Below, piece by piece: positions 24,501 to 48,000 of a DNA stretch of 64,000 bases (its first letter is position 1; every line of letters begins with the position of its first letter). The notes beneath the pieces were generated by a model. It did no database searches and had not been told where the DNA came from. It saw only the letters and a list, made by a program, of their open reading frames with translations. The translations under genes and the position numbers were made by a program. The DNA is from Phoronis australis (Eukaryota; Animalia; Phoronida): the NCBI GenBank assembly GCA_002633005.1, contig NMRA01000205.1:359273-423272 (forward strand). The letters run 5' to 3'.

Positions 24501-27500
24501 CATGATGATCTGTGGTACTTGGCTTCTAAGACACAAGGTCTTTATCTTTGAATTTCATTTGCATATTCAGGGCTCTGGACTGAGCTGTTGCTTGCGATAC
24601 AAGTCCAACTGAAAAAAACCCGAACTGTTAACACTAATTTAACATTCAACTATGAGTGAGTTGGCATGCAACTTTTTCAGACGGACGTATCAGGAGCTGA
24701 TCCACCACCAGCCTAACAAATTTACATGCCGTTTGACCTGTAGCCTAATAATGTTGATCGTCTAATAATTAGATCAGTAGATGCAGCTGAAAATAAATCA
24801 GCTGATATACCTGTGCAGTGATTGAAATTTAATTTTTTTAAATCAGATGCTCAAACCATAGTCAATCGATTTACACTTAAGGTAATCGACGTTTGACGAA
24901 ATGGACAGTGGCTTCCATCGTCCTCAAATTTCGACGGCGACGATGGCCACTTAGGCACTTTAATTTAATTATCATTGCAGCTGCTACCTAAGTAATTAAT
25001 GTTTACAAAAAATTGAGACTACGGCAGGGGATGACGGCCACTTGGGCATGTTGTTTGCAACTATCTACTCCATTTAACCTTCTCAAAAATTTTTGACTTA
25101 AAGTGCTTTAAAATCACACCCACAGTATAACGCCATAGGATTATCCCTTAGCGCAAGCAGTGTCGATGTGGCAACTGAATGGAGTGTTCGAAAAACAGGA
25201 TTGCAGGAGTATTTGTTTAAACTGGGAACAAATGAAAACATTAACGACCTCCTCAGAGGCATCTCTCTACGCGGTACTTCTAAACTTATAGGAACATAAT
25301 TTGCCGAAAAGTATCCGGCATATGAAGTACCTATGGTATGATCATCGTCTCTACTGGGTCAGCAGTATTGTCTAAGGCCTAGGCAGCCAAGGGGCTGAAC
25401 AAGTTAAAAAACAACTGGTGATAATACTGAAACACACATGGAAAACACCAAGATGTATTTTTCAAAAACACGTACCTGTTTTTGAAAGCTATACTTCTTT
25501 CTCTTTCTTGAAATGTGGCCCATAATGTACTTTTCCTGCTAACAAATGATGCACTCATGTTTCAGAATGTTCCTATCTTGTTCAGGTTAATTGGGTGTTT
25601 CAGATTTTGGAAGTATAATTGATTTTCTTGGGAAATCTTGGATAACATCTGTATCACTTTCAGCAACTTCAGCTTTAGTACTACTGTTGGTGCCTTGAAA
25701 CGTTGCTATGCCGTTCTATGTCCTTTCAATTTTCTGGTCTGACACTTGGTCTTCTAGTCTACAGCACTCAGCAGTATACTGTGTAGGCTACCAGGACATG
25801 CAGCTGTTTTCTGCACAAACGTTTGTGACACCTCTTCTTCTTTTTGATCTACTGATCTACAGAGTTCCACAGTCAATCAGCTTTCGTCAGGAAGCTTTCC
25901 TAAGCTTCTTTAGGCTCTGACATCACAATTTTGTGCTGTTTGATAAACCTTGAATTATACAGGCATCACACTCCATGGGAGCAGCCATATTGAAGTAACT
26001 AAGCACAACAATACAATCTGGCTCTCTGATTGGTCAATTCAATAGAAAAGCGCCATCAAGTGGCAGGAATGTGCATCAAATTTTGTGCAACAAAAACACC
26101 TTTTTTTAAAAAATGTGCAAGTGTAGACGTGGGAACTTTTTGGAATTTGATTTATTAAATTTAACTTGTTAAATGCATTTATCGTCATTATTTTGACACT
26201 TGTCTCTTTATTTTGAGACCAGTCCTTAGGGTTTATTTTGCATTACTCATCTCTATCTATAGCCTCTAAGGCCTACTTTTGTATTCATACGTTTCTCTAC
26301 GCAACTCCTGATTGGACGCCCATATTTCCTTTGTTCTGTTCAACGTGGTCTCTCATTCAGCCACCCATCTCGTCATCTACAAGACCTACGTTCGTTCTCT
26401 TCATTTTTTTTCCTCCTCTTGTTTTACTCTGCAACATAGCTCGTGGCGTACCCCGGGCAAAATAGATTACGATAAATAGGTATATTATCTAGCCACATAG
26501 AAAAAACTAGGTTGCCCCCCCAAAGTACTCACAAGGATGAACGCTACGAGATCTGGCCCACCGACTAAGTGTAACAACTGCCTGAACGGTACGAGGCATT
26601 CGAGGTTTTGAGCAAATAAGTGGCATGTTTTCGCCCGACGCCATCTATAACACTCGGGTTATTTTCATAGTCTCAAATTATCTGTCGTAGGTGTTTTATA
26701 TCTCCGCATGTTCGAATTACTTCAACCCTAATAGAAAATAATAATGACTGTCACTAACTGGAGATTTCAGTTGCTGGTCAAGTCCCCGGCATATTCCTAT
26801 GAGGCTAAAATGTAAAATATCAGTACACCAGTAATGACATCGTGAAGGATCTTCTAAACGTGATAGGCTGATCACCATAATTATGATAGCTGTTCTGATT
26901 GAATCTTGGGCATGCGCAGATATGAAACACTTCCGAGGAATAATTTGGGCTCTATCCGAGGAGGTCCCGGATGAATCTGGTAGACACACTTAGCGCACAT
27001 GCAAGCGTAGGAGAACTTCTCATCCATATGCATTCGCTGGCAATATATGAATAACGTTGGTCGTTGACAGTTACTTCCGACCATGATCACCCCGTCAAGT
27101 TATTCGTTGGGCGTTTTGAGAGCGGGATGAAGTATGTTGCGATGATTCGTTCGCTTTCGTTTTTTGTTGAATCGCGTTATAACAAAACGGCGAGTTCAGG
27201 CGATATCGGACGTTCTAGAACGAGTATTATGATATATGATACATAAAACTCGATCGTTCCCAGAACGTCCGAGGTGCTTAAAATCGTTAGCTCAAGGTTT
27301 GTCTTGTTTCTTCTTGCAGTCGTGGACATGACTTGCTTAGGAGACGAGCGAGGATTCAACTTTAATGGCAGACGGAGAAAATCCCGAAACGGAAGGGAGT
27401 GTGTTGCGTGGTCATACATGCTGCAGGAGTTTCCGGATCACAAAAATATAAAGAATATCATCAACGTTGTTAGTGGATGGACCACTTACGTCCGAGACTA

Positions 27501-30500
27501 TGGACTATGCAGAAACCCTGACCTCAGACGAGAGGGTCCGTGGTGCTTTGTCGATTACGACAACCCGGATGTCACGGAGAATTGCGGGATACCTTATTGT
27601 CAAGGTAAATTAAAGTCGATGAATTCGCCAAAAAAAAACCGCACAGACTTCTGTTTCGTGACCTTCAATCGGTTTCCAATGTTCAAACGACGGGATTTGA
27701 ATTTTACTACACGCCAATTAAGAACTGAGCGACAAACGAATGATCCTATCTCAGGTTCCGTTTTGTCGGTGAACGCCCAGTTGCACCTCAGTGGTAGAAG
27801 TAAAAGATGCACTCCTTGCATCTCAGCTGTCGCCAATACGTGCCCCTGAGTGACCACCTCTCATGCCGCTATGCTCGCCATTCACGCCAAGTATGAGTCC
27901 ACATTCGTTTTAGCAAGGGTTCAATACACAGTTTTAATTTATTGATGAATTTTTTAATTCAAATTCCTAGTTTGTATTCTGGCCTACTACAAAATTGCAA
28001 ACATGTGAGTGCCACAGTTTCCTAAATAAAGGCGCCTCTGGCAAAAACGTGAAATTTGCATGGATTGATGATAAGTTAGATCTATAGCTATACTATGACC
28101 TTTGAAAACCCCATAATTTCTTTATACGATGTCGGTTTATGCGCTAACGGCTCTAGCTTTATATCCCTACACTGATTTTCTTACGTCGGCGCAAGTAAAC
28201 GTTTTTTGTGCTTTTTTGATTTCGATTGCTTACTTTAGCCTTTATGCTTCTGCGTAAAAGTCACACCGTTCATGCGCGCACCCAGGGGGGTCGGGGGCTC
28301 GAAGGAACACCCCCCCCCTCCATTTGGCGAAGTGGGCAAAAATCCGCCTCCCAGAAACAAAAAGTCCGAGAAAAATGAGACAAAATTCCTCTAAACCGTC
28401 ACAAACGCGCAGTTTACAGTGGTGCGCCCGTTTTTTTTTAGTCCGCCCGTTACCGAAAGGTCCACAACGTCAAGAATTCGAGCCCCCCTATATTGAAGGC
28501 TGGGTGTTTTATTTGTTTCCCACCGTGATAGGGAGTCGCCGACTTCGTTTTTTTGAAGAATGCGCAATCTGGCCTTCTCGAGAATGTGCCAATTTCAAGA
28601 TCACTCAAACACCCCCCTCCCCTCTGACGTGGTGGTCATAAGGCCGGTAATCCTCACCACTTGCCGTGTGACTGATATCCGCTGATGCGTCGATAACATT
28701 CACCTCCCAGGGGACATTTGAATCTACGAAAATACCCAAGGTATCCGCCCGCATAGCCGCTTGAAAAACGATGACCTGTTAAAGTTGCGTTTCTCCGTTT
28801 CACTTTCGAAAATCGAATTTCAAATTTTATTTTTACATTCATAGAATGGTCTCATAATATCCCTCAACGTGATAGGATTGTATTTATGGTGAAATATTGT
28901 TTCCGTTCAACGACTCAAGAACACGCTTCAGATTTTACTGGGGTTGGTAGACCCCAAAAATTGAGAAAATTACGCGTGCACTCATTGCTTGTGACTGGAG
29001 TCAGTGCCGGCTCAATAAAACGAGATTGGGGGACCGTGCTAATGTTTTAAACCCAAAGCGCTTCGTTTAGAATTCATCATTGACCGGTAAACAGGGATGA
29101 AATGTAGCTAATTCCTAAATCTCTGAATGCTTGGTCAAATTAATTAGAAACAAAACATATAGCGACGATGTAAATATGAAGTAGGTTGAAAGTTGCCAAA
29201 TATTTTTAAAAAGTTTTGTGTCAAAAATAATCCGCAGAAAATCAATCAACCGTATCCAGTAAGTATCGTGACGTGGTTTTGGGGAATAACACTGCATGAT
29301 CGGCCGGCTATGTGAATCCCCAAGGTACGTCATCAGTGCAAAGGTCACCTATTTGCAGATTTGTTTGTTTTCACCTTTACAAGTTGTCAATGAATACAAC
29401 TGTACTTTGTTTAGCTCAGATGATGTTCGTTGTTTAGTTCCTGTTACACATTAGCATACGGTTAGGAGCATGTGAATACATCTTTAAGCGATTGGTCGAC
29501 AAGACTGGACTGATCAACCAAGCAGATTTCTCACCGCAGGTGCCTCACGAGTGTCTTGTATTAATGGAACGCAGCCCTGATTTCAATTTCAGTACCAGAT
29601 ATTTCTTGCTTACGTGACGACAGGGGATTTGGCTACAGAGGCTCACATGGGATAGCGGACAACGGTGAGCAATGCACGTCATGGAAAACTTGCATAAACA
29701 AATTGAACGGCCTTCGCCACATACCTAAATCGAACAAGGAAGTGATCAGGAAAGTGTGGACGACGTCATGGCGTGGAAGAGACAGCAAGGCATGTAGAAA
29801 CCCCGACAATGATGTCAGTCCATGGTGTTTCACCACTCGCGAGTGTAAAAAGGAATACTGCAAGAATCGGATCCACTTGTGCGATTTCGGTAACTTTTAA
29901 ATTACAAGGACACCATCTTACCTTAAGAAAACCTCTTAGCCTTGGAAACCAAGGAAAATGAATCCGCATTCCTGTTATTAGTTTCGCTTTAATCCCACCT
30001 GACTGTTATTCTAGTTTCGTGATACTGTTAAGTCAATCACGGCCTTGAAAATTTATCATACGCTCTGGAGATGCTGGTCGACCCACAGCTCAGCGAGTGG
30101 TTTACTCGCTAACCCGCCCTGTGTCACCTGCATGTGCACCAGCCTAATTAATTCATCGTCATAACGAATGTACCAATCTCTTGCGCACATCTAGTCAGAT
30201 GAATATAGTTCCCATACCGCTGACTACTGTTTGTCAGATTTACAAACGTAATTTTCACAGTCTCCTGCCTTCACTGTTGTTACAAAACATAATTGGATGA
30301 GAAAAGCACTATGAGCTGTTAGTCTCGAATTATCGAAATGTGGGGTGACTAGCTAACTCGAACCCATCTAATCTTAAACCTCTCGTTCACAATACACATA
30401 ATCCACTAACTCGAAGTCACCTTAGCGTCATCTTAGCGTAAGGTTACTTTAAGTCCTCGTAACTTAAGGTGGTCTTGAGGTCATCTGAACACCACCTCTA

Positions 30501-33500
30501 CTCTGAAGTGTTGAAAATACCATGCAGTAGCGGTGTGTGATTACTTATAAAGAACGTTCGCTTAATAATTCATTGTTGAATTTGTCATTGTTTGTATGAA
30601 TGCTAATGATATTGTTTTCGAGTTTGTTGTCGTTGTTCTTCTTCGTCTTCTATTGCTTCTTCTTCATATCGCCATGATGACGACGACGACGATGATGATG
30701 ATGATGATGCTGACCACCATCATTATTATTTTCATGTTTTATTGCTATTATTTTTAAAGACTGTTATGTGTAATCGTGTAATTCTAATAACGCTTTACAG
30801 TGATCTTAGAGGAGAATGCCACCCGATTCAATTAGCCTTTTTTCCGTCTTAATCGGTCTATATCCGCATCACCTCGTATACGCGGTCGATTTTACCACGC
30901 CGAGGGGTGTTGGGTTAACCTGTGAGGAAGGTGAGTAAACGACGCAGCGACGTCAGTGGTTCTTCTGCAGAGTGAGTGCCGCTATGGTGTTGAGTATCGT
31001 TCCCGCTTGGGCGAACTGTGAAGCTGCAGGAAAACTGGTATATCGTTTTTTTCTTTTTTCGATTTCCTCCGCGAGAGCCCGAAATGCTTCGGAAGTGGCT
31101 CGCGACAGCGAAGATTGAAAAGTACGCCGTTGATACCAAGTATGAAGCCGTGAAACATCTTTGTGAGTTTGGCCGGCATTTCGTCGACAGTGATTTCACT
31201 AACGAATACCGGCTTACCAAACAGCTCATGCCAGGGCAGAAAAAGAGATGCCATGTTGACATATTGTGCGTTCTGTTTCAAAAAGAATTATTCTCAACCT
31301 AACCAATGCATGCTTACATAAAACTGAACAAAATGTCAAAGTTTGTCTCATTAGATACTACTTGTAATGCTTTGGAGTGTTCGTGAGTGCAAATGTTTTG
31401 AGAACTGAGCCAGCAATGAATAAATCACTGTGTTACGGGCTTCAAATGCAATAAAGCTAATTGACCGGGCATCGAGGCCGTGTGAGCGCATGCTAATTCA
31501 GTGTTTGCTGACAGAATGTTGTTCACAATGAATAATTCGGTTTTATATGCTATGGTCAGATGTTAGGGTAATCTTTATTTACATATACATGTACATTATT
31601 CGAATCATTGTTACTGTACCAATTTTGCCCTGGAAAGGGAAATTCGTGGCCCTCGACGAGTAAGTAGATTTGCATTTTCGCGGCTAGTTCACAAACATGA
31701 TCACGTGCACATTACTTCTGTGTCTCACTGTGTAGTCTTTTCGTGACTGGAAATTTAGTTTACAACTTCGGCTAGTTTATGTTCGTGATGCCTTCAAGAG
31801 TCCGGACGCGACGGGCCTGGTCGTATTCCGACGGAGTCACTGGAGGGGATAACAAGCGAAAAATCGCAAGTCTAACATTACAATACACACCTATGTTCTC
31901 CTGTCTTGTTTTCACGGAAGAATAATTCAAATTTATCACCGAACAGACCACAAACTCCCGCGACCGACCTTGGTCAATTGGCCTACCGAACTGTGTAGGC
32001 TACGGTACGTTCAATTACTATAAATCCGTGACAGCGAAATAAAACAACACGTTTGTTCAAGAACTCGGTGTGTTTCTAAGGGTTTTACGTGGATTTGTGA
32101 TTATTTATTGACGGAAAACGATGAATTCAAGCGATAAGATGACACCAGTAAGCGTGTTGTGAACTGCTGAACAGACTACGTTCGAACCTGTGACGTCATT
32201 GGTTATTTTCAACACCTCCGTCTGCCATTAGGTGTCAGGTAAAAGAACTGTACTTGCTGTTATCGAGTAAAACTAATCGATTTAAATTGATACAAATTAG
32301 GTTGTTTTTGGGTGGCATTCTCCTTTAAGTAACGGATCGCCGTACTTTAGGTTGCTTCAAGTTAGTCACCCCAGCTGCTCAATAACACCCTGATCATTTA
32401 TGCCCCTAAGAGAACACTAGCGTGTACGCGCTAGTTCTGGCTCACGTAGTAAATGCAGACAGATAGTTAGTGACATTTGGGCCTTCCCAGGCCTTAGTTG
32501 GTCCCACGTCGTATGCAATATTCTTTCTATTCAACTGTCCGTTGTCAATCTAACAAGCAAGACATTGGCAAACACAGATCATTCGATGCTCCTCTTCACT
32601 CGGTCCACGTGTTTCACCGCACATTAACGCGTGCTCTTCATTCTTACCATGGCCTTGAAACATTTCAATTGAAACATTTAGAATTGAATTTCCGGAAGTC
32701 GTTTGACGAGCTTATGAGGAATCCTCAAGTTCGATGTCGGCTATGCCTTTTTACAATATCATCAAATAGCCATTGGTCACAAGTGACCGGTGACATCCTA
32801 CCCGACTCTTTCACACCGAGGGCTCATCAGATATAACCAGGGACATTGGGAAGAAGACAGTGCATGAACTACTCTCAACCACTTACCCCATGTTGTGCGT
32901 CTACTACTACTTTGTAGCGTAGAATAGATTATTGTTTTATAAAAAATGTAATTTATAGTTTGTAAGGGGATACTTCAGTCCTTTGGATCAAAAGAGAAGG
33001 TACTTAACTTATCGCCAGCTAGAGGACCGGCAATAGTCCCCGTCGTGCTTCCGCAAAGCTTTCCGCTTTGACATGTTCAGTTACATCTTTTAATTAGCAT
33101 GTGAGTTGAGTAAGGAATTCCATGGCTTAGAGGCTGCACCGCACTTAGGCCCGTCTGTTGAATAGTCATTGGACTCGTTTTTTTCTTCTTAAGGTTCTTC
33201 TGTCGCCCACCGTAAGCCGTCGAGGCAGTCCTCTCAGGGATCGTCTGCTTTGGCCGTAGACGGAAACCCTGACACATGCTCTCAAACCGACGGGACAGCA
33301 AGACAATGGTGGATGGTCAACCTCCTGTATTTTTATTTCATCAATGGACTCAGGATACGCGTGGGTATGACCTTACCAATGATGATGCCAACAATTCTTA
33401 ATTTCCTACTAGGAAATTAGACTTAAAACAGTATCCAAAATCTCTTCTAACCAGGAATTTAAAGACTCTCCTCTACACCACAAACATTTGGTGTATAGAA

Positions 33501-36500
33501 ACTTGATTTACCATCAAGCTTGGGTAAGAGCTCGCGTTATTCGTGACGAACTGGATCATCTCATTTCGCGGGGCACTAAATCATTATATGCGATATCGAG
33601 AGATGAACTAGTGCATGCGGTAAAACTTCCTCATGCCGTAAGGATCTCAGAAATGGGTTTTATAACCGCACACTGAATCAAAGTTGCATTTAGATCATGT
33701 ACAGTGTTCCACAATCTCAAAAATTGTTTTTGAAAGGAAATGGGCATCTGGCCAAGTCATTTGATGTGGTAGTGTCTCGACACGAGAAATATGGCCAACG
33801 CGTCTGCCTCGAGAACGCGATCATGCCTGGCGCGGGAAAACACTTCACAATTCACTGTGGCAAGCGGTACAAGGCACAGTACGTGAAGATTCAAAGCAAT
33901 CTAGGCTCTGGTCGCATCGCTCTCTGTGAGGTGCACGTGATCACGGGTGAGTACGAAAGCTGTAATGGTAATTGCTTAGAAAACGAAATTGCTTTTGTTC
34001 ACAACAGTGAACCTAATGACTATGTCTAGCTAAACGGTGAGGAACCATCGATTACGCCTTAATTCGTATACCATTACGTTACAGACAGTGAGCCGTTCTA
34101 CCCAGTTACTAACGCTAAGCCTGCTGCAACGTCAGACCCGTCAGGAAGAGCTTCGCTGGCACTCGACGGGAACGTTTACACATGCATCGATCTAAACAGT
34201 AGGCAAGACAGGCGGCATTATTGGAAGGTGGAACTGTTGGCCAGCTACAAAGTACTTGGTGTTAAGTTAACTAGCACGCCACAGCAAGGCAGGTACCTAA
34301 TAAACATTCACATTGGTGTGTTGCACTCAGGTTTCACATCATTGAACTTACAAATGCGCATATTAAACAGGCGATTCCAACTGACCGCACTATCGGACAA
34401 TGTCGTGATTGACAACGAAAAATGAAAAACTACCGGAGTGGGACGCAAAATATCATTCGATGTCTTCTACGATCTAAGCTCAGAAACGTTTCAAAAACTA
34501 GATCAGTTATACTGGACGTTTGTTTACCTTCCCAACAGAGGAGAGTAGAATTCGGTTTCTGGTTATTTGTTACAGGTACTAGTAGTAAGCTTAGACTCGT
34601 CGGTAGCAGAAGAGGAAACGAAGGCCTAGTGGAAATTTATCTCAGAAGACGTGGTAGGTGGGGCGCCGTGTGCCAGTACATGTGGGGACCGGAGGACGCC
34701 ATGGTGGCTTGTCATCAACTGGGTTACCAGTAGGTTTTGCCAGTAGGAGCTGCATTAGCATTGCAGCTTTCCCGCGCGTAGTGAATTCAAAGTCCCATGT
34801 TGGCTTTAAGCCTTCTTGGCTGCGCATAACTGTCTAAGCTATTGGTGTCTCATACACTAACAAGTGCAACTCAAAGCGTTGAGGTGCACCGATGACTATC
34901 GTATTGCCGCCGTATATTCAAATGAATGCTTTTTTCGTGGTCCTTTTTAATCAAGTGGTTTGCATATTGGCGTATGAGTAAAATCTCCGCGCATAAGTGG
35001 ACGTAATATACCTTGCAAAGGCACTTGCATTAAGTCGCATATAGGCTCGCCCGTTTGACTACCACAATGCCTTCCAATGTTTTTACGTTTCCTTTTGTAC
35101 CTTTGGGGTTCCTTGGCGTATTTTCGAAAAATATTTAGTAAATAGTTTTGTGGTACCGTATTGCTGCGCCTTTAGGTCTGTGGGCTTATATCCGAAATAA
35201 TATGCCTTTTTTAACCAAGTGGTTCGCATATTGGCGCTCGCGCCAAAGTTTTGCATATAAGCGCAGTTCCACACTTGCTGGTTCCGCCCTGCGTGTCCGA
35301 ATCCGAGCACGAAGGTATCACGCAGTGGCACGCGTTTTATCACTGGTTGATGTCAAACCTCGGTAGTCATTGGCTATCTTTACAACAAATAAAGACAATG
35401 GCGGACTATGAACGGTTTTTAGCCTTGTCAGTTGGCGTGACAGCAACTACTTCATTTGTACAGTAATGCGGTTTAGCCGCGTGCTTGAAGCAACAAGGCA
35501 TGCATGTACAGATCCACACACATCTGGCTGATTAACCGGTGTGATATTCACCTTGTGTGAATACAGGACACCAACGTAAGCAAAAGTCAGCGACAGTAGA
35601 AAAATGCACTACGAAAAGGCACAACACAATTTTCCGATTCACATTTCTTGAACATGAATTAAGCACCGTCACGGCAAACTAGGCCTATATCCACATTTAC
35701 ACTTCCTCCATCAGACATGCCATTTTGTTTACGTAAAGCGGTATAACTGTTGAGAATTCGACCAGCCAATCAGAAACTCCGGTGTAAAAAAATTCCCGAG
35801 GAAATTTAAATGATACCTGCGTATTCACTACCACCAAGCGGGCAGGCACGGAACCACTGCAGCGAGAGTTCCCGGCACACACTGGGGCGGGCGGAAAGGA
35901 AAGGCGCGGCAATACGGTAAACCGCAAACGGCGTGATTCTAGGCCTGTTTTCACTGTTGTAAAATGGTCACTAGGTGGCACAGTGTATGTCGAATCCGAC
36001 AGCAAATGGGAAGGCGTCGTCGCCGATACGATGTCTGAAAGACTATGAGCAATTGTTGAACGAAAGAGAGCTGACGAACCGTCCAATCCTAAATGTCAGA
36101 ATGTACTTAAACAGTAGTGTAAGATATTGGCTTTAGCAGTCATTCGCCCACTGAACTTGTGTCTTCGTCTTACCATCCGTACGTTAGGGAAAACACATGG
36201 TAAATTTCCCAACTAGGATCCTGTTAGTTTTAACATTCCTTAAGAGATAGGGCCGAGGACATAAAAATATCACCACTAGGGTCACCATAATAGCCAAGCC
36301 CGTCCGAAAATCAACGTCACACGTGGCCTTCTCATCAGTAACACATAATAAATATCAATTTTGATAATGAACCTTTTGTTAATTTGGCCGAAAGAGAGAC
36401 GGACACCAACAGAAGACCGAAAACAATACGATTGGTCACTATGCGNGGCACAGTGTATGTCGAATCCGACAGCAAATGGGAAGGCGTCGTCGCCGATACG

Positions 36501-39500
36501 ATGTCTGAAAGATTATGAGCAATTGTTGAACGAAAGAGAGCTGACGAACCGTCCAATCCTAAATGTCAGAATGTACTTAAACAGTAGTGTAAGATATTGG
36601 CTTTAGCAGTCATTCGCCCACTGAACTTGTTTCTTCGTCTTACCATCCGTACGTTAGGGAAAACACATGGTAAATTTCCCAACTAGGATCCTGTTAGTTT
36701 TAACATTCCTTAAGAGATAGGGCCGAGGACATAAAAATATCACCACTAGGGTCACCATAATAGCCAAGCCCGTCCGAAAATCAACGTCACACGTGGCCTT
36801 CTCATCAGTAACACATAATAAATATCAATTTTGATAATGAACCTTTTGTTAATTTGGCCGAAAGAGAGACGGACACCAACAGAAGACCGAAAACAATACG
36901 ATTGGTCACTATGCGTCGCAGAATACGTTGAATCTGTGATAGAAATCACTAGGCACTATTTTCCCTCAGAAACCTGTTCGTTTAATATTTCATGAAAGTC
37001 CCGCGCCAAGACAGATGCAAACGCAAACATTGTCACTAAGGGGCACACCAGTAACCGTATCCCGGGTCCTAAATACCTCATCAACTGGGTTAGTGGGAGG
37101 TTCAGCACCGGACGTGGGACTCCAGACTCCCAGACAGCAATACGCACCCACAAATAAATATGTGCGCGCGCGTGCGTGCATGCGCGTGTTTGTATGGGCG
37201 CATAAAACTCCTGGTGATAAAGAATAGTTAAATTCCCCGTCGTATAATGGTCCTAAAACTGTACACCAGCCAGAATCAACTGGTTTAACTTCGCCGCTGG
37301 CAACGGAGGCTCTTTCTTTAATGGCTCCAGACCAAATACCTCTCATTGTCTTTTAGTGAAGGGGTTGCACAAGTCGTTCGAACGCCGAAGTTTGGAATTT
37401 CAAAACTACCGGATGCGTTCATGACAGCAGTTGAATGCAGGGGCAACGAGTTAAGTTTGGACGACTGCCCGCATGACGATTCGAATAAACACCGTTGCCA
37501 TTACTCTGCATCAGTTATCTGCCAGGGCCTCAAATGTAGGTTTGTACGCATTTAATATTTCACAAACGACGAAGATAATGCCGCCTTTAAAATATTGTTC
37601 GCATCCCCTCCCTCTCCCGACCAAGTTAACTTATTTTTAACATGTCGTGTTTAAGGTGCACTCATTCTGTAGCTCCAGTTTACAAATGTTGTGTATTACT
37701 GAAAACTGCCCGGCATCAAATAACATATTTCGAGTAGCGCACAAATTTTACGACCGGCAACGGGAAGGAAACAAAAAGTTTTGAATTTCCTTCAGTTTAA
37801 GCGACTATCCCGCCGTTCAAGAAGCGAACTTTTAAGTTTGAAGCACTTACCGCTATAACATTGGTCTCAACTTGTTCCTTAAATACTCAGATCAGAAGTG
37901 ACTGGGTTTGCCACCTCATTATTCCTGTAGAGCATAAAATGACACGACCATGACAAGCCAACTTGTAGACTGAGACCAGTTTCGAAACGGTATGCGGTCT
38001 AAATCAAAAGTTGGATTAAAAGATGGAAAGCGGTACAACTAGGTCACTAAAGTCTTTTACACAATGCTCTATTATTCTCATCGACTTTCAAAAGTCTGCC
38101 GGGAACAAGTTTTGAAAGCACCTTTCAAGTTACCAAATTCAATGACTGGGTATAAGCACAAGTAACGCTAATGACTACCTAGGAAGACCGAGCAAACGAA
38201 CCAGAGCATCCATTTTGCGACATCATGTGTGAAAAGGTTCGGATGATTCAGTAGCAAGAGACAGGAATAACTTTGAATATTAACAGCAAAAAAAAGAGTT
38301 CAGTGCCAATACTAAATTGATCAGTTATTCTTTCCAGCCGATTCACTCGACGACGTCGAGGTAAGCGTGCTGACTGAAACCTCTACGATACCTTGCGCCT
38401 CACACGAAGGGCCAAACTCCATAGAGTTGCAATTAACATGCGAAAATCCAACGAAAGGTGAAGCGGTGCGCATATCGCCCACAAAGGCAGACAAGCGCTT
38501 GATCATCTGCGAGGTAGAAGTAAACGTGGGTGAGCCACAAATCTGCATTCATCTTTGACATTGAGTAAATTACAAGCATGTTTAAATCGGCTGTCCTCTT
38601 CAATACGACAAGCACTCGCGTAGTGGTATAGGGAAATAAATTGATACAACTGCTGCTCATGTAAATCGCTCGTGCATATTACGTTTACTGGCACACAGAC
38701 AATAAGGATAAAGGTGAATGCTCGATTACGCTACATGTTTATTTGCAATCAAGATCTGGCTTGTGGACCATCTTCCCCAGTTAACTGGAAAGTGCCAAAT
38801 TCTCCACATGAAGGATGATGTTGCTACCGTCGAACGACTATTACCAAATGCACGAAGAGAGGCATTTTTCTGCTGTAGGAAAACAGGAAATTCCGTGCAT
38901 TGTTTCAGAGTTTCCCGTCGCTTACAGAAAACCAGCACTACAATCGTCAACCCTCAGCGCCAACGTCGCGTCAAGATCCACCGACGGTGTGCATGATGGA
39001 CCCCTTCGCCACTCGTGCTCGCAGACGATGTTCTCCCACCAACCGTGGTGGAGCGTGGATCTGCAAAGCGTCTACTACGTGAGAGGCGTCAAGATTTATT
39101 CAGGTACCATTTTCGGCTGGCTCCAGAAGCTGACAGGTCCACGATTAAAGACAATCTCTCAAAGTCATGTTCTAGTTAACCGATTTGTTGGTCGAATTTA
39201 AGACACGTCCATAAATTCGTATGATGAATAGTTCTTCTGTTAAAAACAAGTGATGACATTCAAACTATTTTTGACCACATTGGATGTATTTAACAATAAA
39301 GTTCATTGACCTAAAAACGCCATTTACAGTGGTGCACCTAAAAGCAGACGGAATTCAAATAGATGTCATAGAAAGCCAATAGTAAACATGAGCCATTTCA
39401 TGAAAATAACCTCTGTAGAAACTGTAGATTTAGAAATGAGAGGGAGAGGTATGTCACAATTCACACGTTCTAGACGTGACCGAAGCTTTAAAGCCGACAT

Positions 39501-42500
39501 GTGACACACAATTCTGTTTCCGCTTTACACGGTTTCTCAGTGGCGGAAGCATTCACTTCCACTGGGCTGATCTAGGCACAGCTGTATTATAATTTCTTGC
39601 AACTCATCTACGAGAAATTGCCTTACGTCATTAAAAAGGGCTTATATAATACCCACTCAGTAATTATCATTTCAGGATTTAAAATGGACAATTTTAAGGT
39701 CAGTGTTTCGGGAAGACGTTGTTTCCGCTACATCGGTACTGAAATTCCTTCCTACTTCTCGAGAGATTGCAACTCTCCAAGAAAAGGGCAACTGGTGACT
39801 ATTCAGATACAAAGTACACGGAAGCACAGTCTTCGCATATGCGAGGTGGACGTCATTACAATCACCGGTTGGTAATCAACAACTTTTCCGGATAAAAGCA
39901 ACGCCTGGGTGACAATTTATACTTCCTTTTCAAGCCAATATTGTCTTGTTCTTTCCCAGAATCTTCTCCACGATATCGTCAGATTCCAGAGATGGAAACG
40001 ATCACCAAATGTCCCCAAAGTCCGAAAGTAATTGTCTTAAGTTGGAGGATGTAAACCTTGACACGCTTCGTCTACTAACAGCAGTCTCCGCTTTTAAATT
40101 AGTAGGAAATACTAAAAAAGAATAGTTTCCATTTCTTTCGCGATATAATGAAGTCTCGCCCTGAGTTTTCCATTCCACAATGATCCGTAGCGTTTTCATC
40201 AGAAGTGATATTTAAAATTCTGAAACGGTTTTCACGTCCACTTTAAATACTTCAGTTGCTGAAGCATTTGCATGAATCACTCTGAAGTTCATTTTCAAAA
40301 AGGCAGCGCAAAAGCAACCATGGAGCCTTTCACACACACCAACTTGGGCAGTGACGCACGAATTACGTGTACAGCAAACGTGAATGATAAGGAAGGTATA
40401 CAAACAGTAAAAATCTCGAAAGATGGCAAAGCCGTAATGGTCCGCGACTCCTCCGGCCACAGGAACATCTTTGGTAACAAGAGGCTGAAGGCGTATGGTA
40501 TCGGATTGACGGAAACCCTTGTGCTGAAGGAGGTCACCAGAATCGACGACGGCACGGAGTATTCGTGCAGAGTTACGTCGACACTCGGCATCGAAGCTTG
40601 GAGCTCCACCATAATTATAGTGAATGGTAAGTGAAGCCGCAAGTCGTAGTGGTTCCTATAACTGTTGTCTTAGAGTGGAGAAACGAACTATGCCAATACA
40701 CTTCTCTTCAAATATTTTGCATCGAAGCACCAAGCCAAGCAATTCTGCCATAACTGAGTTGCCGTCATTCCAAGACTGGACCTTCGTTTATGTTGGTCAC
40801 AATTTTCAGACATGTTCAGGGGTATTAAACGAGAAGTGGCCGAGATGCCTCCCATAACATTCGGCTATTTAGGCGAAGACACGCTGGTCAATTGCACCGT
40901 CAAATTAGAGACCTCACGCAATGAGCGATTGGCACAGATACAGTACAGTCGCGAGGGAAAAACCGTCGTCAACTACAGTGCCGCTGACGTGTTGTTACCG
41001 GGATACGATGACAGATACGACATAAAACACCACGGCACGGTGTATTCCCTTGTTGTTAAGAACACCGCTACCAGCGAACAAGGCGTCAGGTTTTCTTGTC
41101 GGGTAGCTACCAGTATTGGTTATGGAGGAGCAGAAACTACGTTTTCTATCGGTGGTAAGCACAAGTTAATCTTTCTCATCAAACTCAAAACAGGCACGCA
41201 GGAGGTCGTAATCGTTAAGACAAAAAGCACCTGAGATCTATGGAGGAATGTTCAAGCCGGCTACATGGGGCAGATCCCTTCTGTGGGTAAATTGCGCGTT
41301 TGCTATTTTTTTCAGAACTTCCCAAAATGCCAAAACTCAGCATAAACCCAGTAGCACACGTCCGCTATCTTACACTAGGCACGTTGGTTATCGTGGAGTG
41401 CGAAGCCTCCGTAGGTCTACCTCGGAGCCAAAACACGTCCGTGACGATCGTGGTAATGAAATCCTCTGCAGCAGAACAAATTCTTGTTGGTCCTGAACAC
41501 AGCCGCCTCGTGGACGATAAGACGTCGACATTTAACAATACGATCGACTTCAATGTAGATTACAGTTACAACGGCGCCATATTTAGGTAACTTAGAAAAT
41601 TTAAAGTCCGAATCTCAGAATGAACAAAAACACTTTTCCGTGAAAAGCCATATTTGGCTTACTTGCTAAGTGGTTGATATAAACACCTTTATTCGTGTAG
41701 GCCTTCTTCGGTATTTGTTTTAGGTGTATTGCAAGCAACGCTGCATCGCCGCCCAGGGTCACTATCGCAAACACTATTCGTTACGAGATTACAGGTACGC
41801 CTATACAAATCCCACGCTTGCATTTTTAGACTATTACAGTTTAGAGAACACGACAATCGTAACCGATTTATAAATTCATAGTTGCAGCTCAGGTATTTTT
41901 ATGGCCTCAGATATCCTCGGTTAGGACTGAAAAGCACCGAGGAATTCCAAATGATTTTGAAAAAAGTGGTAAACCCAAAATGGTCTCGTTTCAGTGTTGA
42001 AAATAACAGACCCAAGGCGTAAGTAGACACTGGTGTTTCAAAAATAACTATTTAATTAAAAATTACATTTAAATCAATTCGTTTTATTTGATTTGAGCAG
42101 AATAAAAACGGTGAAACTTCCAGTATATTATGAATAAAACATGGCGTATGTCGTTTTAGATTGTTTCAAATCTGCCACCGGGTGCAAAAATGGTGCCTGG
42201 TGCACCATGGAGACAGGTTTGTGCTCGTGCCTCCAAGGTTACCAGGGAAAGTCGTGTACGGAGGACATAGACGAGTGTAAACTGGTGCCATACCCATGCC
42301 ATGTGAACGCCACATGTCATAACGCTATTGGGTCATTCAAATGTCGATGTAAGAAAGGTCAGGTTGGCAACGGACAGTTTTGCAGAGGTAAATAATTTTG
42401 TTTTATAGCGACTTCTTGGTCAATATTTTCTAAAAAAGTTACACTCTTGCCCAGTCATCCAGAGGGGGCGACGTGACAGAGTGTAAGCCTATCAATTTCA

Positions 42501-44265
42501 GTTTATAGGTATTGTAAATGCCATCAGTAATAAAACTTGGAGAAAGGGGAATAAATGTATTAAAAAATCTTCAAGCGATTTTTGATTATATTTACTCCAA
42601 CGGATGAAAAAGAACAGCGCCCGCAATATTTTAATGTCAGAGTTAAGCTCTCAAATAGGGAGAGACAAAAATATCATTTCGCTTTACTAGTAATGCCGCT
42701 GTTTTGTTTTGTTTTTCTCCAGAGGAGAACATCAAGGACAAACTGAAGTGGCTTATTCCTCTCGTGTTACTAAATATCTTCTTCATCCCTTTCATCATCG
42801 GCACCTTCGTCTTCTTGAGAAGGAAAATCAGGTATGCGACTTCCGTCTAAAAGTCCCCCTCCCAGCGTCCTCAGCAATCACGCGTGTGATATTTTCAACC
42901 ATCGCTGAAACGTTGTAACAGTGAACAGCTGTTCACTGCAACACATATTAGTTATAACATCCTCAGCCTCAGAACCCCTGTCATTTGGCGTATTAGCTGG
43001 TGAGTCTGTGCTTCCTGTTGGAGCACCGCCTGGTATGGAGTCTGACTTGAAACCACAACAAACCACACACAAGGGTCTGTTTGTTGTGGTTTTCAGTTGC
43101 AATGATTGAAGCAGTGGCGGAACTAGGATACCATAAGGGGGGGCCCAACATGTTGGCTCGGGGAATTGGGCAAAGCGCGATTGTATGTACAGCTCAGGCA
43201 AGAGCGGGAGCCGAGTATGTGAACCTTCTGTTCGAAGAATCTACCAGTGGACTAAAAAAACGGGATCGCCGCGATCTGGGAGCACCCCTTCTTCCCGTCC
43301 TAGTTGTTTACTCAATATTTCCTCACGCTTCACGCTGTTGCTGTTCCATTTTTGCTTGCGGCAGCCAAGGAGGGGGGGGGGAGCAGGCCTATGAATCCGC
43401 CTATGTGAAGATTGCATATAGCTTGTTTGCAGAATGGGAAAACCAACAAAACCCTTTCAAGTTTCAAGGCTTCTGTCCCACTTTCACTGTTCATAACATT
43501 TAGTGAATATGATAAACTTCCAACAAAGTTCAAAGCCTCTATAAGCTGGCCTTCCGCCACAAAAACAACGGATTTACAGCACTTACCATTACGGTCTCAA
43601 CTTTTCCTTAAAACGAACCCGATTTTGATGATTCAAGCCAATCCTCATTCGGTCTAATGCATCATAGGTGTCAATCTTGATAGATAAAAGCAGGACTAAA
43701 CTAAAAACTCATACTCCCAATGCCACAGATTGGATGTTAAAGTGCTTGCTGGATAGCGGTCCTTCCCTACAGTTGACGATTTTAATCTTGCTTTTTTCTC
43801 ACCTTATTTCTTTTGTATTATGCTAACTTAATGTTTGGAGAGGTATCACAGATAACGTCTGGCATCTGGGCAAGCGAAAGATCCAACTGTTCCCAAGTCT
43901 AGAAAAAAGGGTTTCCCTAATTAGACGTCCTTAGAATTTCAAGACGTAAAAGAGCAGCTGAAGAGCTTCCATCTTGCTATTGCGATTTGTTTTGGGCGCT
44001 TCCTTATTTTACCTAGACTACTAAGTGTTGTCTAACTCACTTTTTATAATCCATTTTCAGAGCAAAAGCGAAGAAAAATACAACTGGAACCAAGACGATA
44101 AACCGAGATTATCGTTATTCAATATTGACAGCATATAGACGCCCTGATCCGAATGCAAAGATTTTGCCAGATGCTGACACATTAGGCAGGTCGGAGGAGT
44201 GTAATAATGAGCAGAACAAAGATAAGGACGATGACGATGACGATTATGATGACGATGATAACTGA
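21411..44265 (+). CDS. Mosaic type-I membrane protein, 19 coding exons, about 1352 aa: SP-Kringle x3-FTLD1-FTLD2(N half)-SRCR-FTLD2(C half)-FTLD3-Ig x3-EGF-cbEGF-TM-cytoplasmic tail
   Basis: Exons 21411-21513, 22273-22596, 27320-27604, 29593-29889, 33194-33364, 33737-33946, 34085-34288, 34576-34729, 37357-37535, 38338-38529, 38909-39103, 39676-39867, 40303-40626, 40810-41154, 41316-41586, 41724-41794, 42160-42387, 42723-42831, 44061-44265. All have AG acceptors and GT donors (one probable GC donor) with compatible phases. The sum is 4059 nt, an uninterrupted frame from ATG to TGA. Confidence 0.85.
21783..21990. mobile_element. MITE with GATTT(A/G)GACCAC TIRs; related copies or ends at about 37930-38005, 48574-48620, 60880-61450 and 63084-63319
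   Basis: Left gatttagaccacaattaccgtcacgaaattgg is the inverse of right ccaatttcataacggtagtggtccaaatc; the same terminal motif recurs at the listed sites. Confidence 0.65.
22273..22596 (+). CDS. Receptor exon: kringle 1
   Basis: CLRDFAGSTYKG...CWRWS...LCRNPNNDPNGPWCFT...WNYCADIDIC; phase 1-1 exon of 324 nt. Confidence 0.92.
23082..26567 (-). mobile_element. Decayed, internally deleted Academ (AcademX-type) DNA transposon in receptor intron 2
   Basis: TIRs TAGTCGGTGGGCCAGAT...ATCTGGCCCACCGACTA with further subterminal inverted similarity (gtgagtacttt.ggggg; gttcccac/gtgggaac). 3-bp TSD AGT at 23079-23081 and 26568-26570. Minus-strand remnants DLVS*EAKYHR (about 24500-24540) and a C-terminal Cys-rich CKCKK..C...CC..G..CTEMCSCDNCSN (23816-24085). 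Confidence 0.75.
27320..27604 (+). CDS. Receptor exon: kringle 2
   Basis: CLGDERGFNFNG...ECVAWS...LCRNPDLRREGPWCFV...ENCGIPYC; ttcttgcag acceptor, G|gtaaat donor. Confidence 0.92.
29593..29889 (+). CDS. Receptor exon: kringle 3
   Basis: CLRDDRGFGYRG...QCTSW...ACRNPDNDVSPWCFT...EYC...LC; phase 1-1. Confidence 0.92.
30674..30709 (+). repeat. (GAC/GAT)n trinucleotide microsatellite, intronic
   Basis: atgatgacgacgacgacgatgatgatgatgatgatg. Confidence 0.8.
30810..32324 (+). mobile_element. Non-autonomous Kolobok-like DNA transposon with a THAP-domain remnant, in receptor intron 4
   Basis: TIRs AGGAGAATGCCACCC...GGGTGGCATTCTCCT flanked by TTAG (30806-30809) and TTAA (32325-32328). ORF 31018..31302 FFRFPPREPEMLRKWL...HLCEFGRHFVDSDF resembles THAP (FP...W...C..HF). 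Confidence 0.7.
33194..33946 (+). CDS. Receptor exons 33194-33364 + 33737-33946: F-type lectin-like domain 1
   Basis: N half VAHRKPSRQSS...ALAVDGNPDTCSQT...WWMVNL; C half ...RVC...IHCG...AQYVKIQ...IALCEVHV. These are fucolectin/FTP signature segments. Confidence 0.85.
34085..34288 (+). CDS. Receptor exon: N-terminal half of F-type lectin-like domain 2
   Basis: VTNAKPAATS...ASLALDGNVYTCIDL...YWKVEL...KVLGVKLTS. Donor is either AAG|gcaggt (34289, phase 1) or CAG|gtacct (34293, phase 2). Confidence 0.8.
34576..37535 (+). CDS. Receptor exons 34576-34729 + 37357-37535: group-A SRCR domain
   Basis: LRLVGS...EGLVEIY...WGAVC...WGPEDAMVACHQLGY | H...VECRGNELSLDDCPH...C..SASVIC; six Cys; the internal phase-2 junction CA|T joins in frame. 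Confidence 0.92.
35977..36915 (+). repeat. 469-bp direct duplication separated by a single N; probable assembly artefact
   Basis: 35977-36445 and 36447-36915 are near-identical (I saw two substitutions); N at 36446. Confidence 0.85.
38338..38529 (+). CDS. Receptor exon: C-terminal half of F-type lectin-like domain 2
   Basis: DSLDDVEVSV...PCA...LTCENPTKGEAVRI...LIICEVEV; phase 1-1. Confidence 0.85.
38909..39867 (+). CDS. Receptor exons 38909-39103 + 39676-39867: F-type lectin-like domain 3
   Basis: VAYRKPALQSST...ASRSTDG...SCSQT...PWWSVDLQSVYYVRGVKIY | ...RC...DCNSPRKGQLVTIQ...LRICEVDV. Confidence 0.88.
40303..41794 (+). CDS. Receptor exons 40303-40626, 40810-41154, 41316-41586, 41724-41794: three Ig-like domains
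   Basis: GSDARITC...LVLKEVTRIDDGTEYSCRV; GEDTLVNC...SLVVKNT...GVRFSCRV; GTLVIVEC...YNGAIFR|CIASN. Each has the B-strand and F-strand Cys pattern. Confidence 0.88.
42160..42387 (+). CDS. Receptor exon: EGF plus calcium-binding EGF
   Basis: C...CKNGAWC...CSCLQGYQGKSC, then EDIDEC...C..NATCHNAIGSFKCRC..G..GNG..C with the C-x-N-x4-F-x-C hydroxylation consensus. Confidence 0.95.
42723..42831 (+). CDS. Receptor exon: transmembrane helix and basic stop-transfer
   Basis: EENIKDKLKWLIPLVLLNIFFIPFIIGTFVFLRRKIR; tttttctccag acceptor, AG|gtatgc donor. Confidence 0.9.
44061..44265 (+). CDS. Receptor last exon: cytoplasmic tail to stop
   Basis: ccattttcag acceptor, phase 2; AKAKKNTTGTKTINRDYRYSILTAYRRPDPNAKILPDADTLGRSEECNNEQNKDKDDDDDDYDDDDN*. 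Confidence 0.75.
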
Positions 44266-45067
44266 GGAACAGCAAAGGGAAGGACGTGGAAGACTCGGAA
44301 TGTGCCGGTGCCCATAACAATCAAAAAATAATTGAACTAAGGGACGTGACACAGTCACTGACTCACCACTGCCCACGAATCCAAGTGTTCATGCAGTAAC
44401 AGGACAAACGTATTTGTATTCTCATACTTTGTGATTTATCAGTGTTCACATTACATATAAGTGAGGGTTTGTGATGATCTTACTATTAATAATAATAATT
44501 AATGTATGATGCTGTACAGATTTATGAACATAAATAATTATGAAATTGTGTAAACAACTTCACTGAGAAAATAAGAGTGTATAGGGAAACATGGGAAATT
44601 ATACACAGGCAAAATTATCTCCAAAGACAATTATGATCAATGTACTTGGCTGACCTCTTCCTCAGTGATGTAATTTTCCCCAGCAGGTGGCGTGGAAAAC
44701 AATGCATTGCACACTAGATTGATGAGAGGTGATGAGGTTGGTCTCCACGTTAGAACAGTACACAATGCATTGTTTTTCAAGCCACCCGCTGAGGAAAATG
44801 TCAGACATGATGTTTTCTGAGCTTGTGTTCAGAATGTTGCCACAAACAACTAATTGACAAATAGTGGGTAATTATATGTAACCTGACAACTCTGCAATAG
44901 TTATTCTTAACACATTTTAGTTGCTTTACTTATATTTTGACATTTTTTCAGTTTACCCAAGAACCAGTCTTGTTTTTAGGGTAAACATTGTTGAACAAAT
45001 GGTCTTGCAAGATCTTTAGACAGGCAATCACTCTGTCCTAGACGAAGACACACCCACCAACTGCCAA

Positions 45068-48000
45068 TCAAATAGTGACACTTAGAAGTTCTTTCTGGAG
45101 TACATGCACATTGCGTCCTCGGGTACTGTTGTATATTTGTCCATCACTAAACTCCTCATGTTCACCACCTGACGATTCACATTCTAATTTTGCTGTAACC
45201 AATAAAACAGAGAATTACTTCTAATCTACAAAAACTAAAATTTTTACTTTTAAATTACTTAACATGATTTGAAGCTACGTGATGAAACGTTATTAAATAA
45301 TTCAAACGACTCTTGAACATTCATCATCAACAAAATGAAAAAAGGACAATACAATGCAATATTCTCAATAATATTACTGTTCAAACTCTGTTAGCTCACA
45401 TGATACTTTTTGCTCATTACAAAAATCAACCTAAGAAATGCCCACGAAGTCAATAACACCATCTTCAATGACACGTGCCAGCAACAGAAAATTGATTTAA
45501 AGACAATGTTCAATAGGTTGTTTAATGTTAGTTTTGCTAAAAACTTTACCTGACGAGCATTTGAACATGTTGACAGCGGGTAGGCGGAGATAACCAGTTA
45601 CCAACGGCAACATGTTGATCGATATTAGACCATTGCCATTGGTGAGAGCAACAACCCCTGAAAAATTAACTGGAATGTGGAAGTCTAGAAAAAGAACCAG
45701 CAGCAACAGAGGTCAGACATTCTAACACCAGATATCCACTTCTTAGAACAGATTTCGGGTCAGTGATACAGCACTGACACATCCTAATTCATCACTAAAA
45801 ACCTTATCAGAAATAACTGTTTATTTCGCAAACTAATCTGACCTTAGATTACCACAATCACAATTTCACTAGAAAAATTTAGTTCCAATTATTGGCACAG
45901 CAGTCAAATCGAGAACCAATTCCTGTTTGGGGAGATTTTGTGAGAACCATTCCTGAGGCTACCCAGAATAGATTATAACAAATAAATGAATATCCTTACC
46001 TGTACGTTTTTCATCGCTAGCAATAGCCCAGCTACTCCTGTCTGGTGACACCTCATAGACCAGCTGGTCATGTGTACAGTTAATGTCCAGACTATCAATC
46101 TCTACTTCAAGTAGACACAAGTCTCCGACGCAACACTCCTCACCCGACTTGGGAGTGACATTACAGCGCACTTCATAGAGGGTCTAAACAAATGAATTAA
46201 GACTGTAGTTTGCACCCAGTTACAATGTTTAGAAGGCATTAGTCCATTGAAGAGAAAACATGACAAGTACAAATTGTGCGTTATTTTTCATACTGGACAA
46301 AATTGCATTCATTACCAATCATCAAGGTAGCCATTATCTGTTTAACCAGTAGGCAACCAGTCTGACAACATTTATTATGATTGTGTAATAATCTGAACAC
46401 AATGGATCAGAAAATGTGGCCAACTCCACCCATAGACTTGCTGCGAATAAGATGGCTACAGGTTTATCACACGCCAATTCATGACTCACAACAGCCAGTG
46501 GGTATTGCAGGGGGTTTGTCACGGAAAAACATAACGTTTTCTGCAACCATGGATCAGTGTAAGCCTATTTCTAAGATTTGGTACAAGCTCCAGCCTTGAG
46601 CAAAATAACTAATTTTCACCGTCCCTGACAGGAGAATTTTACCGTATTGCTAATAACAGAGAGAGGGGGAGAAGAAGAGGGGGGGAGGGAGCGGGAGAAA
46701 GATAATACATTTAACTTAAATTCAATTGGTACAGTACAACAGAAACAAAACAAAATATTCTTTAAATGGAATCTCATGGTTGAACCAGAGCAAATGGAAA
46801 TACATACATTATAGCTAGATAATGAGAAGTCAGTTGTGCATTCCCTAGCCTCTCCAGTGCCAGCTTCTTGATACTCGATACTAAACCAACAGGTCAGGTC
46901 AGGAGTCTCTGGGGTGTTGTTGACTAACTGCCACAGATACACTGCTGTTTGATCGATACTAACACACTGAAACAGGAAATGAGAATTTGAGACTAATTCA
47001 ACATGTCATGTAGTGTTGACCAACTGGTATATAGATTAACCATTGTTACTTCTGTTAGTTCTGGCATGCAAAATAAAATTACGCTATACTACACTATAGA
47101 TCATAGACAACGTAGTCGGAACTAGTAAACATTTTTTAAAAATTCCCAAAGGGGGTGCCACTTACTTTGTGTGCCAACATTGGAAAATTCTGGTACTTTC
47201 GTACAGCTACGCAGAAAACATTTTGGCACCAAAATGTTCTAAACATCTCCCTTCAGTAGGAATCTGAGTGTCTTGAGTATTTTTGGCAATTGTTCAGGAA
47301 GTATGATTGCAAAATTCAAGGTCTAATGACGCAGCAAACAACCATAATGAGCAGATGTATATGACCAACTAAAGTAATGCCCAAACTAGGCGCTGCTAAC
47401 GAATAAGGATGCCGCAATTTGCGTGCAAGATCAAATGTCTTGTGGATTGTAAATATACAGAGATGAGGGTTTACGTTCTATAATCTATAGCTACATTTAG
47501 AACCTTATGGTAAATATGAGTTTATTCTTCCTTAATGAAAATGATCTGCAACTGACTAAAAACATGAAAAACATTCAATTTATGCCATTCCAACAACATT
47601 CGGGTGCACTACCTGTATTCAGTAAAAATGCCACAATTCGGACACTATCAATCAGATAAAGATTCACAGCATATTTGGTCCAGTTTTTGCATTCGGCATC
47701 AAAGATTTGGCTTCTACTGGGTAAAATGTGTCCGCTGGAGCCAACTACTGCAAATTTTAGGAATAAAGATTTCACTGAATACATTCCGAAAAATGCATTG
47801 TTGATCCCTTTACTAAATAAATTGGTCATCAGGAAATCAGTGCTAGATGTCAGTTCAAGTATTTAAGTGAACATGGTTGCTACGGTAGTCTTCAAACAAG
47901 TCGACCATTTTTCTTGTCGAAAATCAACTTCAATTTTTTAAGCAACAAATTTTCGCTCATTTTCAAATGATTACATTGTTATTTTTCATTTGATGTGTTG

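Follow-up and report, generated by a model that had tools for sequence, protein, structure and literature searches.

Can a complete extracellular domain come to lie inside another domain of an animal membrane protein, and do the transcripts of such a gene keep their reading frame? The question is raised by a locus of the phoronid Phoronis australis, which was analyzed within a stretch of 64,000 nucleotides (assembly GCA_002633005.1, contig NMRA01000205.1, positions 359,273 to 423,272 of the forward strand; hereafter the window, in which position 1 is the first letter). Its plus strand carries a gene with three F-type lectin-like domains (FTP1, FTP2, and FTP3), and an initial annotation, made from the letters alone, proposed that exon shuffling had placed a whole SRCR domain at the sugar-binding loop of the second. 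At the DNA level, the SRCR domain is indeed nested within one F-type lectin-like domain. Our favored reading, held with moderate confidence, is that the SRCR cassette occupies the mid-domain intron of FTP2, likely as a result of exon shuffling, and that in-frame transcripts would yield a single barrel from whose CDR4 loop the SRCR domain projects.

A lectin-like domain encoded in two separated halves

The N half of FTP2, comprising the strands up to CDR4, is encoded by an exon at positions 34085-34288 and the C half by an exon at 38338-38529 (phase 1-1). Between them lie two exons (SRCR-a, 34576-34729; SRCR-b, 37357-37535) for a complete SRCR domain of 110 amino acids with six Cys residues, and both SRCR exons as well as both FTP2 halves have open frames. 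In FTP1 (33194-33364 and 33737-33946) and FTP3 (38909-39103 and 39676-39867), the N-half exon is directly followed by the C-half exon. The exon order agrees with the layout first annotated for all three domains.

That the two parts of FTP2 belong to one domain is indicated by an F-type profile of 148 positions, to which 11 database proteins contributed 48 repeats and the window sequence none; the proteins had been gathered with the FTP2 N exon as the query, and a slight bias toward the N half is possible. The N half alone scored 27.6 bits (profile positions 15-74) and the C half alone 17.5 bits, and none of 1,000 shuffles scored as high in either case. When the halves were joined without the SRCR, a single alignment over positions 15-147 was obtained with 47.7 bits; this score equals that of the intact FTP1 (47.7 bits) and is lower than that of FTP3 (61.9 bits). 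With the SRCR retained, the match was broken into positions 16-76 and 115-147. The junction of the halves aligned with the RxDCCxER stretch of the profile, i.e., the CDR4 loop, where eel agglutinin carries Arg79 and Arg86 (PMC5712786). The N half also aligned to FBP32 (3cqo) in a PDB sequence search (E-value of 0.086). The C half alone was missed by the Pfam scan and by the PDB sequence search, and in the ESM Atlas its match to a cluster annotated as F5/8 type C (0.90) ranked 18th among 30.

Under the motif definitions of PMC5712786, FTP2 retains the h2DGx cation motif (ALDGN) and the CEV end (ICEVE, the equivalents of Cys146 and Glu147). Four structural Cys residues stand at columns matching the Cys50-Cys146 and Cys108-Cys124 pairs; they are divided between the N and C halves, and the bonds, including the one closing the domain, are predicted. 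The case that would have undone the nesting, an extra C half in 34289-34575 together with an extra N half in 37536-38337, was searched for and not found: a six-frame profile search of the whole window (E-value of <0.01) returned only the six known halves, and reading through three introns gave at most 2.3 bits, scores that were equaled or exceeded by 2, 8, and 37 of 40 shuffles. Hidden extra FTP halves were accordingly rejected.

Co-folding of the halves pointed in the same direction. Predicted as two separate chains, the FTP2 halves reached a score of 0.56 versus 0.00 for the best control, with at least 91% contact agreement between runs and a partner pLDDT (predicted local distance difference test) of at least 73, compared with 53 without the partner. 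Of 78 solved complexes, 51 passed the mark applied, as did 2 of 108 mismatched pairs; passing scores up to 0.60 were obtained for 5 of these complexes and for all 4 mismatches that passed among 180. Moreover, the predictor may have memorized F-type structures already solved, and the outcome was already likely from the profile match. The predictions thus lend weak support to the view that the two halves form one fold together.

The inserted SRCR domain and the sugar-binding site

SRCR-a covers positions 2-42 and SRCR-b positions 39-100 of the 100 positions of the Pfam SRCR model (E-values of 1.4e-9 and 1.6e-8, respectively), and SRCR-b additionally matched CD163, neurotrypsin, and LOXL2 in the PDB. 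Identity with database SRCRs amounts to 36 to 44% over 98 to 113 aligned residues. Group A SRCR domains are characterized by six Cys residues and two exons (PMC3100851), the pattern that is found here, with the two exons joined in RNA reads. The intron between them contains a 469-nucleotide tandem duplication (35977-36915; 467 of 469 positions identical), probably an assembly overlap, whose copies meet at a single N (36446).

The placement at a ligand-binding apex, as originally claimed, has to be divided into two parts. The position in CDR4 is upheld by the profile junction, and the notion of a working sugar-binding apex is not: the His/Arg/Arg triad is absent from FTP2, and a functional fucose site in this domain was therefore rejected. 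The fucose motif HX24RXDX4(R/K) is present in 26 of the 48 database repeats and absent from all three domains of the window. Because the uninterrupted FTP1 and FTP3 lack the triad as well, the loss of the fucose site probably preceded the SRCR insertion. The host has a putative F-type-like fold, is predicted from its residues not to bind L-fucose, and is not classed as a fucose-binding F-type lectin.

Transcripts and the reading frame

Stranded reads cover all examined exons in two of the three raw RNA runs; X3 and X4 are nearly without coverage. The SRCR exons are expressed at a depth similar to that of their neighbors, with 22 reads at position 37514 in both runs compared with 13 and 15 reads at position 38480 in the FTP2 C exon. 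SRCR-b is spliced straight onto the acceptor of the FTP2 C exon, and reads also cross the assembly gap. An assembly artifact was therefore rejected as the cause of the exon order.

On the in-frame path, all domain-flanking introns and the introns in the middle of the FTP domains are in phase 1 and the intron within the SRCR is in phase 2. The cassette itself is thus phase 1-2-1 (SRCR-a 1-2, SRCR-b 2-1) between acceptor 34576 and donor 37535, and the open frame from FTP1 to the natural stop comprises 1,015 amino acids. A second GT lies 4 nucleotides downstream at all three donors around the cassette. The end of the FTP2 N exon at 34288 is a GC donor, and the alternative GT donor at 34292 is in frame only with an acceptor at 34583 or 34586.

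The favored reading is called into question by several observations, which for splice joints refer to the 15 of 39 that were listed. The only exit joint of SRCR-b among them, 37539 to 38338 (9 and 5 reads), leaves in phase 2 in place of phase 1 at the in-frame donor 37535, shifts the frame by 4 nucleotides, and leads to a stop at 38375; the in-frame joint 37535 to 38338 is not among them. At the intron within the SRCR, 13 of 26 reads start from the donor at 34653 (8 and 5 reads), causing a frameshift with a stop at 37422, and the other 13 from the in-frame donor at 34729 (6 and 7 reads). Neither is a joint from the FTP2 N exon to SRCR-a listed, and it would require the GC donor or a second acceptor. 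In addition, the usual ligand site of the inserted SRCR looks eroded too, judged by its residues: Q and Y follow WxxVC where 27 and 31, respectively, of 38 database repeats carry Asp. By spacing, these positions correspond to D1019 and D1020 of SALSA, a cation-binding pair that is required for ligand binding (10.1101/709915). This acidic site is common in many SRCR domains, is not family defining, and is absent here. Finally, the searches turned up no orthologue, be it with the insert or lacking it, which is weak evidence because the queries were single short exons; when and in which direction the event took place is thus inferred.

These points speak for a largely nonproductive cassette, in which most mRNA is frameshifted and either decays or encodes a secreted stub of kringles, FTP1, half of FTP2, and the SRCR, so that the nested receptor would be rare or absent. 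The 14 reads of the out-of-frame exit fall within the range of 14 to 34 reads of the six constitutive joints listed, half of the joints within the SRCR are out of frame, the acidic pair is gone, and no conservation was found. Against this stands the observation that 26 reads enter SRCR-b and only 14 were seen to leave it, which provides room for an in-frame joint; the 13-read in-frame joint from 34729 was itself outside the main table, and a hidden joint from 37535 is hence possible. All exons have open frames and all Cys residues are retained, the downstream exons are expressed at a similar depth, and a compensating indel may exist in the sequenced individuals, as 12 of 47 indels were listed. 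Donors 4 nucleotides apart are the most frequent type of tandem donor in human data, where decay substrates are their usual outcome (PMC8055015). The unlisted rows may conceal an in-frame joint from 37535 with up to about 13 reads, a joint that skips the cassette, or an indel that compensates; roughly estimated from these low read numbers, between zero and about a quarter of the mRNA would encode the nested protein fully in frame unless compensation occurs. On balance, we regard the nonproductive cassette as a possibility to be taken seriously but clearly less probable than the nested domain.

A different fate of the same exons would be an optional cassette, whose skipping (34288 to 38338) restores FTP2 and gives rise to plain and SRCR-bearing receptors side by side. 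Such a skip is in frame with the GC donor, and the resulting domain scores like FTP1, but no skip joint is among those listed and the depth of the SRCR exon (22 reads in both runs) is not below that of the FTP2 C exon (13 and 15 reads), which makes this explanation improbable. Still slightly more improbable is the view that nothing was inserted at all, i.e., that the SRCR once had a complete FTP domain on either side, both of which lost the half facing it, or that the arrangement is an assembly artifact. It gains some credit from the N at 36446 and the duplication inside the SRCR's intron, and there is no outgroup to polarize the event. However, two exact complementary losses would be needed, exon remnants are absent from the introns examined, the reads cross the gap and join SRCR-b to the FTP2 C exon, and both flanking introns are free of N.

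Origin of the nested arrangement

A single insertion is the simplest explanation of the arrangement; without it, two exon losses that complement each other would have to be assumed. Phase-1 introns interrupt FTP1 and FTP3 at the CDR4 site at which FTP2 is split, and these paralogous domains represent the empty state of this intron; exon shuffling, the origin suggested by the initial annotation, remains the simplest account. In the ancestor, all three FTP domains would have been encoded by two exons separated by a phase-1 CDR4 intron, the state still seen in FTP1 and FTP3. A phase 1-2-1 SRCR cassette could then have entered the CDR4 intron of FTP2 by recombination, with the frame preserved because such a cassette fits a phase-1 intron. 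The insertion may have been tolerated for three reasons: CDR loops accept indels, the host was no longer fucose binding, and the termini of SRCR domains lie near each other. The bond of the Cys50-Cys146 type and the cation site would close the host around the insert, and FTP2 would serve as a pedestal for the SRCR as the exposed binding surface of what its domain set suggests to be an adhesion or pattern-recognition receptor. In-frame donors of the cassette appear to compete with out-of-frame donors, so that part of the mRNA would encode the nested receptor and the rest would be a decay substrate or specify a truncated, membrane-less form. The most likely scenario is an insertion specific to this lineage, in which exon shuffling brought the cassette into a phase-1 intron, and the splicing is leaky. 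On the in-frame path, the cassette would behave as a class 1-1 module lodged in a loop of an F-type-like barrel.

From the lost triad and the lost acidic pair it follows that the ligand of the nested receptor is predicted not to be fucose and may not be a classic calcium-bridged SRCR ligand either. One could go further and assume an immature stage of splicing, in which the SRCR took over a dead fucose pocket and the competing donors divide the output between a nested membrane receptor and a secreted, SRCR-tipped decoy. We put this forward tentatively and think it rather unlikely; a nested lectin/SRCR layout with a split membrane and secreted output was not found in our literature searches.

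Domain architecture of the gene and its surroundings

The host gene encodes a type-I membrane mosaic with three kringles, FTP1, the split FTP2, FTP3, Ig-like domains, epidermal growth factor (EGF) repeats, and a transmembrane segment. The first kringle exon has approximate boundaries (22285-22596; Pfam Kringle, E-value of 7e-7). The second (27320-27604; E-value of 2e-10) has AG/GT ends and a presumed link to the gene, and the third (29593-29889; E-value of 5e-9) is connected to the FTP1 N exon by an RNA joint with 3 and 13 reads. The intron between kringle 3 and FTP1 is rich in repeats and contains an open reading frame with a THAP domain (30994-31302; Pfam E-value of 8e-5) that is covered by reads of both strands, suggesting a transposon remnant. 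Both FTP1 exons are phase 1-1; the N half matched Pfam F5_F8_type_C_2 (E-value of 5.5e-6) and positions 12-72 of the F-type profile, and the C half positions 101-146 with 16.1 bits, a score reached by none of 1,000 shuffles. The FTP3 N half matched FBP32 (E-value of 5e-9) and eel lectin 1k12 (E-value of 1.5e-4) in the PDB, and the C half positions 118-146 of the profile with 16.0 bits. Ahead of FTP3, the acceptor of the FTP3 N exon is joined in two X1 reads to intronic sequence that ends near 38784 (38784-38908), a hint that some alleles may carry a cryptic exon between those for FTP2 C and FTP3 N.

The FTP3 C exon is joined to the first of two Ig-like exons (40303-40626 and 40810-41154; Pfam Ig_2, E-values of 1e-4 and 0.024) by 16 and 5 reads, and RNA joints are available for both Ig-like exons. 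They are followed by a further domain of two exons (41316-41586 and 41724-41794; RNA joint with 8 and 8 reads) without a Pfam match, which is probably Ig-like given its Cys pair and strand pattern. Two EGF repeats, one of the calcium-binding type, are located at 42160-42387 (Pfam EGF_3 and EGF_CA; joint with 18 and 16 reads). The transmembrane exon (42723-42831; hydropathy of 2.6 over 19 amino acids) is joined by 11 and 5 reads to the last exon, which starts at 44061 and encodes a cytoplasmic tail of 72 residues (44061-44266) ending in an acidic run of Asp with one Tyr, a possible candidate site for a kinase or an adaptor. Throughout the exons, at least 15 letters differ between reads and reference, and 9 of them alter a residue (40 of 823 rows listed and, for one letter, the table of joints, with the two two-letter cases counted per letter), a hint that the host gene is variable.

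A multi-exon gene on the minus strand (45959-62000) converges on the host gene from about 45900, presumably encodes a TRAPPC10-like protein, and may serve as an anchor for synteny. A duplication of about 1.37 kb (50869-52956) around a gap of N (51987-52176) repeats two exon-like open reading frames of this neighboring gene and is likely an assembly artifact.

Relatives and comparable systems

The search for relatives was extended to several resources. For the FTP2 N exon, a word-index search yielded no relative among 41 candidates, and for the second Ig exon none among 114. An exhaustive HMMER search with FTP2 N produced 15 matches with 30 to 40% identity, 11 of which are generic FTP repeat proteins, none with an SRCR; 8 of 32 candidates matched SRCR-a, all of them generic SRCR proteins. 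Metagenome scans gave 0 of 595 stretches in one case and 1 of 594 in the other (L001; 44% identity over 36 amino acids). An SRCR and an F-type domain did not occur together in any of the 23 database proteins fetched, and no report of an SRCR within an F-type domain was found in a literature search that lay outside subscription papers such as Bishnoi et al. 2015. One database protein (P0001; 2,865 amino acids) contains 37 F5/8-type stretches, the best of which covers positions 2-53 of 91 of the Pfam model, suggesting tandem N halves without C halves.

FTP2 shares the whole-domain profile, the h2DGx motif, the four structural Cys residues, and the CEV end with F-type lectins such as eel AAA (1k12), striped bass FBP32 (3cqo), and oyster bindin. 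In contrast to those, the domains of the window lack the His/Arg/Arg triad and the vicinal Cys pair, a domain of 110 residues is located in CDR4, and the protein is a type-I membrane mosaic. Indels of F-type domains concentrate in the CDR loops, and the F-type lectin domains of oyster bindin have a recombining mid-domain intron (PMC5712786); the likeness concerns the presence of a mid-domain intron as such. The insert shares the six Cys residues and the two exons with group A SRCR domains of the MARCO, neurotrypsin, and LOXL types, but it is nested instead of tandem, and the acidic pair after WxxVC is replaced. F5/8 type C domains are among the top partners of SRCR domains in the purple sea urchin and the crown-of-thorns starfish, and kringles in another species (PMC10855680, Table 1). 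The window gene shares this co-occurrence with other invertebrate mosaics, for which co-occurrence but not nesting is described there.

Inserted extracellular domains are known from the alpha-I domain in the beta-propeller of integrins and from the fibronectin type II repeats in MMP-2. As in the present case, modules with close termini reside in a surface loop of the host; those examples are old, conserved, and functionally proven, unlike that of the window with its leaky splicing and without known relatives. The statement that nested domains are much rarer than tandem ones is overstated for proteins in general, as insertions are found in 20% of multidomain proteins (PMC13114784). Intronic insertion accounts for <10% of domain gains in animals (PMC2926785).

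The reach of these observations is limited, since the mechanism is not new, the host is predicted not to act as a fucolectin, and the case concerns a single lineage. If the in-frame protein is made, however, the CDR4 loop of the F-type fold would be a natural graft site for a domain of 110 residues, and a mid-domain phase-1 intron would allow class 1-1 modules to nest instead of being arranged in tandem. With the empty state in FTP1 and FTP3, the filled state in FTP2, and a skip that is in frame, all in one gene, the locus provides a compact test case for the way in which new exon cassettes come to be spliced accurately.

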